A stretch of 64,000 nt of DNA, from sequence record OZ335962.1. One strand, written 5' to 3'. This DNA is from a phage. The translations under genes were made by a program, and so were the position numbers. The notes below the pieces were generated by a model. The model saw only the letters and a list, made by a program, of their open reading frames with translations, did not search any database and had not been told where the DNA came from. Shown piece after piece: positions 14,523 through 23,546 of this stretch. Position 1 is the first letter of the stretch; the number at the start of each line of letters is the position of its first letter.

Positions 14523-14738
14523 TTACCCCAGTTTGACCATACAATCGCCATATTTCCATTTAGAAATAGACTTTTCACCATTAAAATAATAAACTTCGAG
14601 TTTAGCACGATTATTTTTAATTTGAATAACCTTGGCTGTCATCAAAGTTCCATACCCATAATAAACTGCAACCTCATCACCTACATATACCGCGCTTCCG
14701 CGGTAGTCATGGATATAATCAGTTCCTTCGAGCATCAT
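14523..14738 (-). CDS. Hypothetical protein
   Basis: 71-aa ORF; start overlaps nrdC stop. Confidence 0.45.
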   Translation of the reverse strand: MMLEGTDYIHDYRGSAVYVGDEVAVYYGYGTLMTAKVIQIKNNRAKLEVYYFNGEKSISKWKYGDCMVKLG

Positions 14739-14999: not shown

Positions 15000-15257
15000 T
15001 TATTCCTTAATTCCTAGTACTTGTTTAAAAGTCTCGTCGTAATCAAGACTTTGGCCCGTTTGTTCTTTATGTTTGTATATAATATCACTTATTTCTGATA
15101 GCATATTTTTATATGAACGAGTTAAAGCAGATTTAAGCACGCTGTATCTATCAGGAAATTTACCGTGTTCATTATAATACGCTATTGCTAATTCACGGAC
15201 TGCCTTTTCAGCAATCTCCATATATTCTTTACGCTTGGTCATTTTCTTCTCGGTCAA
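15000..15257 (-). CDS. Hypothetical protein (nrdC.1 position)
   Basis: 85-aa ORF. Confidence 0.5.
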
Positions 15258-15546
15258 ATCGGTGTTTGCAATGACGGCATTTATAACGAAGATTACTAGT
15301 CTGCCAATGAACTAATTGTACCTGTTCAGTACCGCATTCAGGACAATTAGGAACGTTTTTAGAAGCCCTTTCGCGACGTTCAACCATAGCCATAATGGCA
15401 TCCCAAGCTGGAGGTTTAAAATCTAAATCGTCACAACCATGAATCTTTCCACGCATTTCCAGATCGTCTTCTTCACCAGCCATAATAATTTTAATTAGAC
15501 TGGAATTACTTGAAGCTGCAATATCTTCTAATAGACGCTTTTTCAT
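15229..15546 (-). CDS. Hypothetical zinc-ribbon protein (nrdC.2 position)
   Basis: 105-aa ORF with CPECG...CRHC C4 motif. Confidence 0.5.
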
Positions 15547-16472
15547 TTCAGCACCTCAATAGCATTACGTAAACCATTTGCTTTTGCATTAAGAGCTTTT
15601 AACAATTTGGTGTGTTCGGCAATCTGGGCTTCAACTTCAATCAAACGAGCATTGAGATATTCACGTTCTTCGCTCAAGTTATCAATCTTTTCTACTTTAG
15701 GCTCTTTTACAACTGTCTTATATGTATTAGGGTTCTTCAGTTTAATTAGAATGCGTGAACTGTATAACATTGAACCATTATCTTCGGTTTCGTCATACAT
15801 TTCTACTACGTCCATGATTTTTAACATCATGCGAAGTTTATAAGACAACGAACGAATAGTTTTGTTGTGCTTATTAATTTCTTTAGAGTTCATGGTGCCG
15901 AGATTACGTGAGTAATAATAAGGAACCTGGATATTAATTAATACTGATGAACCACCTGGCTTGTGTGTTACTTCATCAGCAATAACCCAGTCCTTAACAT
16001 GAACTGTATTTGTACGGTCATCACCCGCGGTAAACAGTTTGCGAGCATGCTTAAAAAGCATATTCACTTGGGTATTGAATTGACAAGCAAATTTATCAGC
16101 AAATTTAGTTTCAGGAATGGTAGATAGCCAATCAGCTAAATGGGTCTTTTTAACATCGTTAACAATAGTAAATTCAACCAAATCGGTTATAGATGTCGCA
16201 GATTTAATGAAGCTCGGCTTCATAAAGTTTTTAATGTTATCACGAGCTACAGTAGAAGATAACATACGAGAACGTTTAAACCATTCAAGCAAATTGCCTA
16301 ATGAATGAGAATAGGCGTTCTGAGTATCTTTACAGATATGATTTTCCTGGCCAACATATTGAAGGAAATCACGAAGAATATTATTGATTACTGCTCTGTG
16401 TCCGATCTGATAATTACGATGTTTAGTAATAAGACTGTCAAAATAATCAATATAATGTTTACGAGTTTTCAT
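15543..16472 (-). CDS. Hypothetical protein, member 1 of coiled-coil paralog array
   Basis: 309-aa ORF; C-terminal ~50-aa amphipathic coiled coil. Confidence 0.55.
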   Translation of the reverse strand: MKTRKHYIDYFDSLITKHRNYQIGHRAVINNILRDFLQYVGQENHICKDTQNAYSHSLGNLLEWFKRSRMLSSTVARDNIKNFMKPSFIKSATSITDLVEFTIVNDVKKTHLADWLSTIPETKFADKFACQFNTQVNMLFKHARKLFTAGDDRTNTVHVKDWVIADEVTHKPGGSSVLINIQVPYYYSRNLGTMNSKEINKHNKTIRSLSYKLRMMLKIMDVVEMYDETEDNGSMLYSSRILIKLKNPNTYKTVVKEPKVEKIDNLSEEREYLNARLIEVEAQIAEHTKLLKALNAKANGLRNAIEVLK

Positions 16473-16524
16473 GTTCTTCTCACTTGGTTAATGATTTATG
16501 CTCCGAGCCATCCTTGGCTTTAAA

Positions 16525-17526
16525 TTACTTAATTAATTGTAAAGCTTGTTCAAGACGATCTAGGCGATTAACAGATTCTTCCCAAATCCTTTTAGCCTGC
16601 TCATAATCTTTCTGCGCTTTATTAGAAATTTCTAGAACTTCTTTATAAGCTTTTTCTAGTGCAATAACTTCTGGACGAATTTCTACCGGTTCAGGTGAAT
16701 CGTCAAGACATTCCATTAGTTCCTCAAGGGTAGTTTCTTCTTTAGGAGTATTCACAATTTCATCACATTTTTGTTGGTAAATTTCTTTATCAGTCGGTGA
16801 GTACGCACACTTTACTTCACGGAGACTAACTACAATTTTATATCCTTCCCAACCGCATATATTCTTAAAAGGATAAGTATGAATATTTTCTACTGTTTCC
16901 ATACAAAGTAATGCGGTCTCTAACTGACGAGTTATATCGCTAGCAATTGAGAAAAATTTATTAATGTTCTTTTGATTAGCTTCTGGTGTAAAAAATTCAT
17001 AATTCACAAAAATAGCTGCTTTATTTTTATCAAGCTCATATTCTTTTATGATAATCATATCAGAAGCCCAAGGATGGATTTGACGATAATCACCATAGCA
17101 TAATTTAGAAGCTGATTTTAGAAGTTGCTTCTTGAAAAGTCTGAAATTACTAATCCAACGACGAGTAAAAATATTCTCAGGGTCTTCTTTATTATTAAGA
17201 TGATAAGAATTAACATCACCGAACCAATTATATCCTACTACATCTTTAGTTCGTTTAATTTCTTTCCCAAATTTACTAAGAATATCTCTGTTGACTAAGT
17301 ATGAAAGAAGACGAGAACCTTTAAAGGTTTCCTTAATATCATCTTTATATTCGCAACTAGAAATTTTATGAACTTCATGAATAAATTTGTCGGAAGAAAC
17401 AATACTTGCATCAGTATTGTTGAGCCACTGATTGATAATAGAAAGAACACTATTCTGACTAGACATAGATTTAACTTTATCATCAATAACGCTATTGAAT
17501 GATTTGATATATTCGTTACGAGTCAT
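16525..17526 (-). CDS. Hypothetical protein, member 2 of coiled-coil paralog array
   Basis: ATG 17526-17524 with SD gaggag; ORF-track start 17556 lies inside the -10 of promoter 17555-17583; C-terminal coiled coil. Confidence 0.55.
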   Translation of the reverse strand: MTRNEYIKSFNSVIDDKVKSMSSQNSVLSIINQWLNNTDASIVSSDKFIHEVHKISSCEYKDDIKETFKGSRLLSYLVNRDILSKFGKEIKRTKDVVGYNWFGDVNSYHLNNKEDPENIFTRRWISNFRLFKKQLLKSASKLCYGDYRQIHPWASDMIIIKEYELDKNKAAIFVNYEFFTPEANQKNINKFFSIASDITRQLETALLCMETVENIHTYPFKNICGWEGYKIVVSLREVKCAYSPTDKEIYQQKCDEIVNTPKEETTLEELMECLDDSPEPVEIRPEVIALEKAYKEVLEISNKAQKDYEQAKRIWEESVNRLDRLEQALQLIK

Positions 17527-17554
17527 ATTAATCTCCTCAGTAGAAAGTAAGAAC

Positions 17555-17583
17555 ATTATACCACATCCTTGTGGCGAAGTAAA
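17555..17583 (-). promoter_or_regulatory. Early sigma70-type promoter
   Basis: Minus strand (G)TTTACT - 17 nt - TATAAT. Confidence 0.55.
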
Positions 17584-18609
17584 CTAGTTTAGTGCATTTA
17601 GTGCATTGTTCAGTTTAGAACGTTGCTTCGTGAGATTTTTGACTTTTTCTTGAGCTTTTTCTAGTATCTTTTCAGCTTCTAACACTTCATTAGTTGCTTT
17701 AATGAGTTCATCATCTACTGCCTTGATAGACTTCTCAATCGCATCTGCATGCCATTTTTCAACAGGTTTAAGACTCGGATTTTCAACAGGAAGAAAATTC
17801 GCTTTATTGAATTTCCATGCATCCTTATTACCTGAACTATACATCCAAAATTTAGGATCGTTTGATGAGTAATTGGATAAATTTAAGTTATAGTTATCTT
17901 GTACTTCCTGCTTTTTCTCTTGCGGGATTTCGTCCTTTCTCAAAAAATCATATTTAAATGAAACGATCATATCAAGTTCATACGTTGTTGTATGTTCCCA
18001 ATTTCGCTCAAAATGAGGTAAAATCTTAGACTGAACCGCGGCAACTACATCCATATACTTAAATGCTTCTGTCAACTGTGATTTAAGGCATTCACAAATT
18101 GAAAGAGAATTTTTTGTATTAGGTTTAAAGCTAATTCGTGCAGTTCTGTTATTTTCTTTTAATGGTCTTACTTCCATCTGAAGAGTATAACCATCAAATT
18201 TCAGATTCTTTAAGTTAATATCAGAACCTTTTAATCGACTCGCAATTGATAAAATTTGTTTTAATTGTTTACGGAATAGAGCAATAAATCTCCATTCAAT
18301 ACGATAATGATTTGGATTGAAAAATCCAGATGATAAATCGACCTTACTTTGACCAACGCCTTGAACAAATAGAGGATTTTTATAATCAATAGTTTTACAG
18401 AAATCGGTGAGCTGCTCACGAGCAGTCATTTGTGTAATATACCCCGCTTTACTAAAATGACGTAACCATTCACTGCTATTCATATATTTAAAGTGAATAT
18501 CACTATTAACTTTATCAGGGTCTAAATTATTTTGACACAAAAATGTCATAACATCACGAGTATAGCTGGCATTACGAACCATATCTTCAATTTGAGAACG
18601 AGTTTTCAT
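17584..18609 (-). CDS. Hypothetical protein, member 3 of coiled-coil paralog array
   Basis: 341-aa ORF, SD aaggaa; C-terminal coiled coil. Confidence 0.55.
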   Translation of the reverse strand: MKTRSQIEDMVRNASYTRDVMTFLCQNNLDPDKVNSDIHFKYMNSSEWLRHFSKAGYITQMTAREQLTDFCKTIDYKNPLFVQGVGQSKVDLSSGFFNPNHYRIEWRFIALFRKQLKQILSIASRLKGSDINLKNLKFDGYTLQMEVRPLKENNRTARISFKPNTKNSLSICECLKSQLTEAFKYMDVVAAVQSKILPHFERNWEHTTTYELDMIVSFKYDFLRKDEIPQEKKQEVQDNYNLNLSNYSSNDPKFWMYSSGNKDAWKFNKANFLPVENPSLKPVEKWHADAIEKSIKAVDDELIKATNEVLEAEKILEKAQEKVKNLTKQRSKLNNALNALN

Positions 18610-18617
18610 GGTGTTCC

Positions 18618-19508
18618 TTAAGATTTAAGTAAATCAACAATTTTAATTAACTTTTCACGCTCAGATTTAGCTTTACTACTCAGTCCAGATAGTCTGAAAA
18701 TTTCATCATCATATTGTTGAATGGAAATATTCAGCTCTTCAATCTGTTTATTAAAATAATCAATTTGTTCAGAATGTTTTTCGTTACTACGAACTGGTAC
18801 AGGTTTCGTAGGCAATGTAGTTGAACTGGATTCATCCGGGCGATAAATTAAAATACAACTTGAACCAATAGGGCATTTTGCACCAGATGAATATTCTAAT
18901 GTTCCAGCTTCTTTTAAAACTTCAAAAGCTAAACAGAGATGATGCCCCATATTAACATAATCTGTGGAGCGAGCTCTGATGTAATAATCATCGCCACGAA
19001 TACTAAATTTAAAGCATTTAAGGTCTTCCGTATTATTGGTCTTAAAAATCATTTGTTTATCTAGACCTTTAGCTAATCGAGCGCCTAATGCTAATAATCG
19101 TCGTTGATTTTCCCACAAATCCACAATCATTTGATCGAATGATAATTTCGGCATTAGTCGACCATAAAGGTCATATCCTTTATTATAATTACGAAGGATT
19201 TCACTCGCGTTAATACGAGACAATGCTCCAATTTTATTAAGAGCTTTCATAATGCGATTAGATAAACTCATTCCAGACCCATTTGTTCGCTGTAAATGTT
19301 TTTCTAATCCAAATCCAATATCAACTTTAAACTTATCTAAAATTTCTGCATGAACATCTCTGTCGATAACATTCAAATCCAAAGTTGGGTTAAATCTATG
19401 AAAAAATTTATCTGGCTCTGCACTGCGAAATACAGTCCATTCATTCATCATTTTTTTATTAACTAAAGATTTAATTACTGCATTGACATTATTAATTACT
19501 ACTGACAT
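18618..19508 (-). CDS. Hypothetical protein, member 4 of coiled-coil paralog array
   Basis: ATG 19508-19506 with SD gaggaa (ORF-track start 19529 is TTG); C-terminal coiled coil. Confidence 0.55.
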   Translation of the reverse strand: MSVVINNVNAVIKSLVNKKMMNEWTVFRSAEPDKFFHRFNPTLDLNVIDRDVHAEILDKFKVDIGFGLEKHLQRTNGSGMSLSNRIMKALNKIGALSRINASEILRNYNKGYDLYGRLMPKLSFDQMIVDLWENQRRLLALGARLAKGLDKQMIFKTNNTEDLKCFKFSIRGDDYYIRARSTDYVNMGHHLCLAFEVLKEAGTLEYSSGAKCPIGSSCILIYRPDESSSTTLPTKPVPVRSNEKHSEQIDYFNKQIEELNISIQQYDDEIFRLSGLSSKAKSEREKLIKIVDLLKS

Positions 19509-19952: not shown

Positions 19953-19961
19953 ATTATACCA
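19953..19961 (-). promoter_or_regulatory. Possible extended -10 promoter (TGGTATAAT), weak -35
   Basis: Minus strand tggTATAAT about 30 nt upstream of ATG 19923. Confidence 0.3.
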
Positions 19962-19978
19962 TCCTTGGTATAAAGCGG

Positions 19979-20970: not shown

Positions 20971-21939
20971 TTATTTCAGAAGAGTAACCTCAGCGATTTC
21001 TTCCCAACCGTTTTTGTCGGTCATAATAAAGTCAGCAAGATAAAGAGCAGTACGCAGTGAAACATTGCGTAAACGATTAACATTAACTTTCATCCATGAT
21101 AATGCTTTATAAGTTTCTTCATCAGAAAGACCGCGCTTTTGCATCATGTCAGTTGAAAGAATAACATCTTCAACCCTGACCATAATTTCTTCATTAGTAT
21201 GAACACCCAAATCCAAATAAACTGAGCGGGACACTAATGCTTGTAAATGTGGAGCAAGTTTAGTACCGCGGTCTAATTCGCGGTCAATGTCAACGTTTGT
21301 GATAAAAACAATCGTTCCTTTAAATTCAAACTCACGCTCAATGCCTTTTTCTTCTAAGTAAGAAGACGCAGTGCTCCAGCAGACTTTACGGGTCTCTCCA
21401 GTGTCCAGAGCGGCTTTTAGAAGATTAAGAATGTCCATATCAGAGAAAACATCCACATCATCAATCAAAAGGACAGAATTCTCTTCACGATTATTCCAAA
21501 GCTGCTCATAAAGACCAATACCAGAGATTTTACCATTAATGCTTTTATATTCAATGTATCCAATATCATTTGCTTTATTCAAAGCTTTATCTAAAGAATA
21601 CGTTTTACCAATACCTGCTGCACCAGAGATAATCAATGAACGAATATTTCCATTAATAATACCATTCGTCATCATTCCCATAACATTAAATCTTTTATTA
21701 ATGCGGGTTTTCATATCTTCATACGATTCTTTAACTTCTTCAACTTTTACACCATCATATGAAATATCTGATTTGTAAACCCAAACACCGCGACGTTTAC
21801 CGTCAATTTCAACAAAAACTTTACCATCTCCTTGTGCATCTACCGGAGCATTATCTGGGAACCATTCGCCTAAGAGCTCAAAAGTTCCAGAGATTTCTTT
21901 ACCGAAGTAGATACCCTTATTGATAGTTACAGTTTTCAT
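20971..21939 (-). CDS. P-loop NTPase (Walker A GAAGIGKT, Walker B LLIDDVD)
   Basis: ATG 21939-21937 with SD ggag downstream of promoter 21976-22004 (ORF-track start 21957 is GTG); N-terminal ~110-aa domain then ATPase core. Confidence 0.6.
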   Translation of the reverse strand: MKTVTINKGIYFGKEISGTFELLGEWFPDNAPVDAQGDGKVFVEIDGKRRGVWVYKSDISYDGVKVEEVKESYEDMKTRINKRFNVMGMMTNGIINGNIRSLIISGAAGIGKTYSLDKALNKANDIGYIEYKSINGKISGIGLYEQLWNNREENSVLLIDDVDVFSDMDILNLLKAALDTGETRKVCWSTASSYLEEKGIEREFEFKGTIVFITNVDIDRELDRGTKLAPHLQALVSRSVYLDLGVHTNEEIMVRVEDVILSTDMMQKRGLSDEETYKALSWMKVNVNRLRNVSLRTALYLADFIMTDKNGWEEIAEVTLLK

Positions 21940-21975
21940 TTTATTCTCCAATTTCACATTTGTTTTGATAGGGTA

Positions 21976-22532: not shown

Positions 22533-23546
22533 TCATTTATAATAACTTCGATGGTTTTCAAGATAAATCCTCTCAAGGAAGTCATCCCAGAAACCCATGT
22601 CTACTTTTTGCTGCATACCGTTCTTAGAAGCTTCAATGGAAGCTGCTTCTACTTGATCGACTACATCTTCCAAAAACTCTTGAACAGTTTTAAATGGATG
22701 TTTACCCAACTTCACGTCGAGAATAAATGGAGCATCTTGAAGTGGATAGACTAAGTCACCAGTTTTGTAAATTTCCAATAGTTGGAGTCCACCACGGCAA
22801 GCATGACTCAGAGCTTTCCAGTCAATGCCCTCATTAGCTTCGGCCTTACGAGCGCGTTCGCCGTATTCAGCATCAAGTTTATTCAAAGATTGCTTAAGCT
22901 CGATAAGAGAAAGCGTTGTTTGATATTTACGACCCAACACGGTGTAGAACGTTTGTGGTCCTGTTTTCTCATGATTATGGAATACCCATTCACAGAATTC
23001 GTTCTCTGGAAGACGATGCTTAATATCTTCAACTTTAGTTCGACGCTGCTTAATGGAACCGTCTTCTTGGTAATCAACCCATTGCTCAGGGATTTGATTA
23101 ACTACTTTCAATACATCACGTAATGCGGCCAAACGAGAACCCTTGACACCATATTTAGAAGCTTGCTTGCGAACATATCCTAAATAGGATTTCATGTTAG
23201 TCGTATAAAAACGAGAACGATTGTCTTGAATAAACTTCCATACATCAGGCAAATCAGATTTAACTACCAGTTCAGGTGGAGTATGGAGCATATCCAATGC
23301 TACAGTTTCACCATCTGCTGCTAATTTAAAGAAATACTTAAGACTGTATAGTTCATGGTCAATATCATCTTTAGTGTTTTTAGATGATGTGTTGTTAGTG
23401 TTTTTACTCATATGCTCTTTAACATTTCCGATAAGAATATCACGAGCAGGAGGAACAAAGATTTCTTTAAAATCTACATCAGATTCTGGAGTAGAAGTTC
23501 CATAAAGATGACTACCAAAATAGCTTTTCATTACTGTTTTCATCAT
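22533..23546 (-). CDS. Pol-beta-superfamily nucleotidyltransferase-like protein
   Basis: N-terminal motif FGSHLYGTSTPESDVDF fits the GS-x(9-13)-DxD nucleotidyltransferase signature; remainder helical; followed by UUCG terminator hairpin. Confidence 0.55.
   Translation of the reverse strand: MMKTVMKSYFGSHLYGTSTPESDVDFKEIFVPPARDILIGNVKEHMSKNTNNTSSKNTKDDIDHELYSLKYFFKLAADGETVALDMLHTPPELVVKSDLPDVWKFIQDNRSRFYTTNMKSYLGYVRKQASKYGVKGSRLAALRDVLKVVNQIPEQWVDYQEDGSIKQRRTKVEDIKHRLPENEFCEWVFHNHEKTGPQTFYTVLGRKYQTTLSLIELKQSLNKLDAEYGERARKAEANEGIDWKALSHACRGGLQLLEIYKTGDLVYPLQDAPFILDVKLGKHPFKTVQEFLEDVVDQVEAASIEASKNGMQQKVDMGFWDDFLERIYLENHRSYYK

Follow-up and report, generated by a model that had tools for sequence, protein, structure and literature searches.

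Four tandem genes of a T4-like phage, nrdC.3 to nrdC.6, as a probable family of diverged paralogs that includes the anti-Dsr1 gene nrdC.5

Even in T4, the best-studied lytic phage, three of the genes of about 300 amino acids (aa) that make up one array are without a function, and a fourth has a phenotype only. The same array lies at positions 15543-19508 of the window analysed here, by which we mean the whole stretch of 64,000 nucleotides (nt) of phage DNA from record OZ335962.1, and it raises the question of what these four genes are to one another and what they do for the phage. A first-pass annotation, made from the letters of the window, had read them as a tandem array of diverged paralogs with C-terminal coiled coils, of the kind seen in host-interaction or anti-defence families. 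That the four are diverged paralogs in tandem, built on a common architecture, is supported by profile comparisons with hhalign and by the heptads at the C-termini, and the one function published for these genes is directed against a host defence.

Many Tequatrovirus (T4-like) genomes match the approximately 5 kb around the array at 96-97% identity, and judged by its sequence the window is a Tequatrovirus. Four consecutive open reading frames (ORFs) of the minus strand are, by position and sequence, the orthologs of nrdC.3, nrdC.4, nrdC.5 and nrdC.6 in the T4 record NC_000866, flanked by nrdC.2, nrdC.1 and nrdC on one side and by nrdC.7 to nrdC.11 on the other. They were found where the four consecutive genes of ~300-340 aa had been placed, and we letter them A to D, with E for the family of Enterobacter phage IME523 and F for that of Klebsiella phage F48:

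15543-16472, minus strand: nrdC.3 ortholog, paralog A (309 aa; named after the T4 annotation; phrog_1435, E 1e-116)
16525-17526, minus strand: nrdC.4 ortholog, paralog B (333 aa; phrog_1435, E 3e-164)
17584-18609, minus strand: nrdC.5 ortholog, paralog C (341 aa; Pfam DUF7235; PHROG 2351)
18618-19508, minus strand: nrdC.6 ortholog, paralog D, which has diverged furthest (296 aa, full length; phrog_2257)

The starts that had been chosen for the second and fourth genes proved sound, a Shine-Dalgarno sequence preceding each and the T4 annotation agreeing. A longer ORF considered for the second gene, nrdC.4, was rejected, its start falling upstream of the -10 hexamer of the promoter. The genes are already annotated in T4 and one function has been published; what is added here is their grouping as one family. 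We found no statement to that effect for nrdC.3-nrdC.6 in the literature searched, and Pfam and PHROGs each use three families for them. The nrdC.3 and nrdC.4 proteins both match PHROG 1435 over their full length. The nrdC.5 ortholog matches Pfam DUF7235 (PF23882) over its full length with 410 bits (E 9e-123; gathering threshold 30 bits), a model to which a Pfam scan gave no match from the nrdC.3, nrdC.4 or nrdC.6 proteins, while the precomputed Pfam labels on homologs are PF26897 for nrdC.4 and PF26899 for nrdC.6.

Among these families, nrdC.3 and nrdC.4 are clear paralogs on their sequences, which share 26% identity over 226 aa by BLASTP and align by hhalign at 98% (E 6e-14, residues 2-231). 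The link from nrdC.4 to nrdC.5 is found by hhalign at 81% (E 1e-5, 230 columns). Alignments of nrdC.3 with nrdC.5, and of nrdC.3 with nrdC.6, are confined to the coil, but MAFFT places the nrdC.3, nrdC.4 and nrdC.5 families in a single register that runs from an N-terminal M-[KT]-T-R to a terminal L..AL..LK. These three genes are thus almost certainly homologous. The first-pass annotation had warned that homology judged by eye could be weaker than it looks, and had proposed pairwise profile comparison (HMM-HMM, that is, of hidden Markov models) as the check. That comparison connects nrdC.3 to nrdC.4 and nrdC.4 to nrdC.5 more firmly than was feared; it fails for nrdC.6 set directly against each other copy, and for that gene alone the warning was well placed, its relationship appearing only through profiles and intermediates.

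The four proteins share an architecture in which a helical N-terminal region is followed by a beta-beta-alpha-beta-beta unit with a 'QL..AL..M.VV' helix, then by a flexible linker that opens with a P-V-E/P motif, and last by a heptad helix of ~50 residues. The last 49 residues of every one of the four show an unbroken a/d heptad pattern, whose score is reached by at most 5 of 2000 shuffles, and the heptads of all four stand in the same register to the terminal LLK-type motif. Long C-terminal helices are also present in the AlphaFold2 models of nrdC.5 (residues 285-340) and nrdC.6 (residues 246-272 and 278-295), the two proteins that the structural comparison covers, with mean predicted local distance difference test (pLDDT) scores of 72 and 77, respectively. 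The C-terminal coiled coil of roughly 50 aa noticed by eye is therefore borne out by the heptads of all four proteins and by the helices of two models, and the heptad helix most likely drives oligomerisation. The faintly conserved core 'L..h..M-D/E-V' was likewise confirmed: the motif (QLTEAFKYMDVV, QLETALLCMETV, KLRMMLKIMDVV, HLCLAFEVLKEA) falls in a single block of aligned columns in both MAFFT and hhalign, and forms the helix of the beta-beta-alpha-beta-beta unit in both models. These models follow one order of elements, namely helices, a short stretch of beta structure, a helix pair, beta-beta, a helix, beta-beta, a disordered linker and the terminal helix.

Several weaker resemblances were set aside. 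The sole PADLOC match, of the nrdC.4 coil to BrxC (12 bits, E 0.008), is a coiled-coil artefact, and the PADLOC and NCBIfam scans of the four proteins gave nothing usable. The alpha/beta unit of nrdC.5 resembles tail completion and tail terminator proteins by Foldseek at E 0.01-0.06, too weakly to be used. A 173-aa protein (P0235; L019 120-641) joins an unrelated N-terminus to a near-identical copy of the last ~60 residues of nrdC.5; known from one metagenome contig of 803 bp, it may reflect module shuffling or a chimera made in assembly, and we did not use it.

Whether nrdC.6 belongs with the others is the harder part of the question. It could be that only nrdC.3, nrdC.4 and nrdC.5 are paralogous and that nrdC.6 is an unrelated gene that happens to be of similar size and to end in a coiled coil. 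BLASTP of nrdC.6 against the other three finds nothing above chance, and direct hhalign against nrdC.3, nrdC.4 and nrdC.5 gives 5.8%, 0.7% and 4.7%, none of them significant. A search with the A+B+C profile of 1.84 billion representative proteins at E <= 0.001 did not retrieve the nrdC.6 family, which both PHROGs and Pfam keep separate. Against a chance resemblance stands, firstly, the register of the weak B-D and C-D alignments, which is transitively consistent because both align D 87-152 with a block that is itself homologous between B and C. Secondly, a chain of hhalign comparisons can be followed through the single-copy homologs of other phages (D-E 84%, E-F 97%, F-B 90%), its first step covering 156 columns and taking in the non-coil core N.R..L.LG.RL..G. 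Thirdly, the nrdC.6 family aligns with a merged A+B+C+E+F profile at 95% (E 3.6e-8, 271 columns, score 62), whereas the score is 19 for the reversed nrdC.6 and no higher than 21.5 in 20 column shuffles, and no unrelated ORF of the window exceeds 6%, the value of the best one. When family E, the closest intermediate, is left out of the merged profile, the alignment still reaches 76% over the N-terminal 142 columns, without the coil (D 6-161).

Predicted structure bears on the same choice. Besides the equal order of secondary structure, Foldseek searches of BFVD with the nrdC.5 and nrdC.6 models return overlapping sets of uncharacterised T4-like phage proteins of ~300-370 aa. Both models match a protein of Klebsiella phage Mineola (A0A2Z4QAR2; E 6e-7 for nrdC.5 and 4e-4 for nrdC.6) and one of Serratia phage PS2 (A0A023W506), and the nrdC.6 model also matches the IME523 protein itself (E 2e-6). 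Template modelling (TM) scores to the shared matches are low, at 0.3-0.48, owing to the multi-domain build and the long helices of these proteins. Taking sequence and models together, we consider it likely that nrdC.6 is homologous to the other three, and quite unlikely that it is an unrelated gene of coincidental build.

One copy of nrdC.6 differs in length. In the T4 record NC_000866 the annotated gene (L001 12067-12894) encodes 275 aa and ends in another C-terminal tail (…ELIFLFNNMMMKFSDYLD), apparently through a frameshift that removes the coiled coil. The T4 annotation used by the HIDEN-SEQ study gives nrdC.6 as 891 nt and the gene of the window encodes 296 aa, so that both of these are full length; the discrepancy in NC_000866 is either a strain difference or an error in the reference sequence.

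What the genes do is best approached through nrdC.5. An evolved T4 lacking a block of accessory genes was blocked in its infection of E. coli ECOR17 by dsr1, a defence gene with a SIR2 domain (PMC9391042), and expression of T4 nrdC.5 by itself was enough for the phage to plate again on MG1655 with dsr1 (Srikant, Guegler and Laub, eLife 2022, PMC9391042). The mechanism of the rescue was not addressed in that paper, and the literature searched held no follow-up on it; nrdC.3, nrdC.4 and nrdC.6 appeared there only in gene lists. The nrdC.5 of the window is 92% identical to that of T4. The earlier statement that no function is assigned to these genes is thus out of date for nrdC.5, for which anti-Dsr1 activity was published in 2022, and the suggestion of an anti-defence family is borne out for this one gene of the four, by way of the plating rescue by its T4 ortholog. 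Because their paralog nrdC.5 disarms Dsr1, nrdC.3, nrdC.4 and nrdC.6 are good candidate inhibitors of other defences. They fall in the length class of T4 NrdC.5 and order their domains as it does, and share with it the P-V-E linker motif, the C-terminal heptad helix and the motifs 'SR.LS..A...L..F', 'F..F.....IL..A.+L..G' and 'QL..AL..M.V'; they differ from it in falling below the DUF7235 model and in their assignment to other Pfam and PHROG families.

The explanation towards which we lean is that the array is a set of diverged tandem duplicates that act as coiled-coil, stoichiometric inhibitors of host immune sensors or effectors, each with a target of its own. One ancestral gene of T4-like phages would have been duplicated in tandem and its copies would have diverged. 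The proteins would be made ahead of the late structural proteins and would oligomerise through the C-terminal helix, and each would bind a different host immune sensor or effector and keep it inactive. The conserved ends would then serve as scaffold and oligomerisation module and the variable centre as specificity surface, the central domain being the likely place for specificity. The sensor of Dsr1 is a TPR domain, common to Avs7, that recognises phage major capsid proteins (2026 preprint, PMC12803255), and in the simplest model NrdC.5 would occupy it, so that capsid protein could not trigger hydrolysis of nicotinamide adenine dinucleotide (NAD+). We infer the direct binding, the binding site, the oligomerisation and the anti-defence role of NrdC.3, NrdC.4 and NrdC.6.

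The model for this proposal is DSAD1 of an SPbeta-like phage, which binds the sensor region of DSR2 in competition with the structural protein that is its trigger (PMC10973363, PMC10981675, PMC11087589). DSAD1, too, is a phage protein that neutralises an NAD+-depleting defence of the SIR2 type, and provides a working analogy for NrdC.5 on Dsr1, although host, phage lineage and target differ and DSAD1 does not stand in a tandem array of paralogs. When profiles of both alignments were run against the sequences of all PDB chains, among which the published DSR2-DSAD1 complexes should figure, no DSAD1 chain came up at E <= 10.

The timing of expression bears on one of the alternatives to direct inhibition. 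Two promoters, called from matches to consensus and known sequences, lie in or beside the array:

17555-17584, minus strand: early-type promoter before nrdC.4 (GTTTAC, 17-nt spacer, TG-TATAAT; 10/12 consensus plus extended TG)
19953-19976, minus strand: middle-type promoter before nrdC.7-nrdC.6-nrdC.5 (MotA-box-like GCTTTA 12 nt upstream of TATAAT)

The -35 hexamer of the first overlaps the stop codon of nrdC.5. The second would be the counterpart of the T4 middle promoter PnrdC.7, going by its sequence, and PnrdC.7 is among the listed middle promoters of T4 (PMC2988021). The initial placing of the array under early promoters therefore applies to nrdC.4, while nrdC.7-nrdC.6-nrdC.5 sit behind a middle-type promoter with a MotA box. 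The proteins might work on the phage side instead, binding or masking the phage's own triggers (capsid protein or nucleic-acid intermediates) and leaving host immune proteins alone. In favour of this, Dsr1 senses major capsid protein, and the weak Foldseek matches of the nrdC.5 model to tail completion and terminator proteins might mean that it binds or mimics proteins of the virion. The trigger of Dsr1 is made late (PMC12803255), and early- and middle-type promoters act before capsid protein accumulates; the tail-protein matches are weak, and stoichiometric masking would be costly because capsid protein is made in very large amounts. The present data fit trigger masking and direct inhibition alike, and we hold masking to be very improbable.

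A decamer recurs near these promoters. The sequence CCAAGGATGG is found in the spacer region upstream of nrdC.3 (16508-16517, minus strand) and of nrdC.7 (19959-19968, minus strand), with the related CACAAGGATGTGG in the nrdC.4 promoter, and may be a remnant of the duplication of a promoter together with its gene. As a shared promoter motif it was rejected: with up to one mismatch there are 5 matches where chance would give 1.9, and as many as 5 turn up in 3 of 100 shuffles, so that the excess is not a clear one.

A second alternative is that the paralogs serve the physiology of the phage, in nucleotide or redox metabolism or in binding DNA or RNA, and that the effect of NrdC.5 on Dsr1 is secondary. 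The genes sit among nrd genes, and many phage GenBank records call nrdC.3-nrdC.6, and even nrdC.11, 'thioredoxin'. Residues 30-86 of nrdC.3 resemble the N-terminal DNA-binding domain of XerD (Phage_int_SAM_1) at E 0.001 in NCBIfam and 0.07 in Pfam, far below the cutoffs, a probable chance match that we did not retain. Neither Pfam nor NCBIfam returns a thioredoxin or glutaredoxin family at E <= 1 for any of the four, and no other enzymatic domain was detected in them. The 'thioredoxin' label is unsupported and has been inherited from the gene name; as an annotation of nrdC.3-nrdC.6 it is wrong and should not be propagated. Moreover, transposon data show that T4 can do without each of the four on E. 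coli K-12 (bioRxiv 2025.11.20.689424), their presence and copy number vary between close relatives, and NrdC.5 alone rescues plating on dsr1 cells. A physiological role is, on this evidence, a highly unlikely account of the array.

The history of the family is easier to reconcile with the inhibitor array that we favour. Searching the 1.84 billion representative proteins with the A+B+C profile gave 17 matches, of which the full-length ones with checked origin are from T4-like phages, the remainder being short fragments; the family is confined to T4-like phages. Its presence, absence and copy number differ among close relatives:

One copy, always directly upstream of nrdC.2: IME523 (Kanagawavirus), F48 (Marfavirus), FRZ284 (Jiaodavirus), CGG4-1 (Gelderlandvirus)
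Three copies: RB69, IME08, VR25 (genera Mosigvirus, Dhakavirus, Gaprivervirus)
Four copies: Tequatrovirus

ORFs of 301 aa in Aes012 and of 293 and 386 aa in ZZ1 were considered as further members and dropped, hhalign not detecting them, as were the genes of ~260 aa upstream of the single-copy members.

Divergence of the individual copies is uneven. The nrdC.3 protein of the window is 61% identical to that of T4, where neighbouring genes are 91-99% identical. Its N-terminal ~70 residues and its coil are conserved, its centre is hypervariable at 25-55% identity, and phage records hold two allele classes of it. The nrdC.6 gene is fairly conserved within Tequatrovirus, mostly at 95-99%. The description of the array as rapidly diverging is established here for nrdC.3 alone. 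Recombinant forms also occur. In P0119, a protein from a 167-kb contig, nrdC.5 and nrdC.3 are naturally fused, each at its middle, with nrdC.4 deleted; the junction is a short similar stretch (KFNKANFL in nrdC.5, QFNTQVNMLF in nrdC.3). In the nrdC.6 of Shigella phage Sf25 (P0121, 378 aa), about 80 residues are duplicated in tandem within the protein. Variable nrdC.3, differences in copy number, fusion and duplication, and a narrow range are together what the signature of accessory genes in an arms race would look like at the level of sequence.

A number of points weigh against reading all four genes as inhibitors. Experimental function is available for one of the four, and NrdC.5 could act indirectly. 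Searches that included PADLOC and the PDB chains found no similarity to a known anti-defence protein or a solved structure. The conservation of nrdC.6 does not resemble an arms race for that copy. Direct profiles miss nrdC.6, so that what places it in the family are the intermediates, the merged profile and the predicted structures; the nrdC.5 and nrdC.6 models are of medium confidence and were compared by their order of elements and their shared Foldseek matches. If the inhibitor reading is nevertheless right, the family would be a clean case of the expansion of a counter-defence gene by tandem duplication. The one-family result turns the NrdC.5-Dsr1 pair into a prediction, namely that the other three genes, and the two allele classes of nrdC.3, each neutralise a specific defence.

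A narrower form of the same idea is that the array consists of blockers of immune sensors, each copy and each nrdC.3 allele class blocking at its trigger site a different capsid-sensing TPR receptor of the Dsr1/Avs7 type, or another sensor, with the coil matching the oligomer of the receptor. We regard this as a speculative and rather unlikely extension; were it true, the array would be the phage counterpart of sensor diversification in the host and a toolkit for finding cognate defence systems.

The surroundings of the array invite comparison with the anti-defence islands of T-even phages. T6 gp49.2 blocks OLD (PMC13096335) and T4 nrdC.1 blocks Septu (bioRxiv 2025.11.20.689424), and a distance of 0.3-1.3 kb separates the array from nrdC.1 and gp49.2. 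Like these genes and the dmd-tifA-adfA 'anti-TA island', it is expressed early or in the middle period as judged by promoter type, clustered, dispensable on laboratory hosts, variable among close relatives, and of the kind lost or amplified by microhomology recombination. The known inhibitors of the islands are, by contrast, small (about 80-115 aa), mutually unrelated and single-copy, whereas the array is one gene of ~300 aa duplicated up to four times.

A further neighbour may share in the function. The gene next to nrdC.3 is the following:

15229-15546, minus strand: nrdC.2, a zinc-ribbon gene (weak zinc-ribbon Pfam matches; 4-nt overlap with the end of nrdC.3)

Homologs of nrdC.2 directly follow a family member in VR25, IME08, RB69, IME523, F48, FRZ284 and CGG4-1 (phmmer E 1e-16 to 7e-49). 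This neighbour is kept in every genus examined, which suggests that the ancestral unit was a gene pair, and the products of nrdC.2 and of the family may work together.

Other parts of the locus vary as well. Aeromonas phage Aes012 has a nicotinamide phosphoribosyltransferase gene between nrdC.11 and gene 49 (L018 12204-13676), an interval with no detectable member of the family; NAD+ resynthesis encoded in the same slot would be a different counter to NAD+-depleting defences. At 14523-14738 (minus strand), in the slot of T4 49.3, the window encodes a protein of 71 aa, where that of T4 has 102 aa and is 27% identical to it, between genes that are 92-98% identical to T4; from its sequence this is a gene replacement within the same accessory island as the array. 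On the other side, nrdC.10 and nrdC.11 lie at 20971-21957 and 22533-23546 (both minus strand). The first is an AAA/STAND-like P-loop ATPase with weak Pfam matches to AAA_14, AAA_22 and nSTAND3. The second bears a nucleotidyltransferase label in other records and is kept in about 1500 phage records, those of Vibrio and Aeromonas phages among them, a distribution far broader than that of the nrdC.3-nrdC.6 family.

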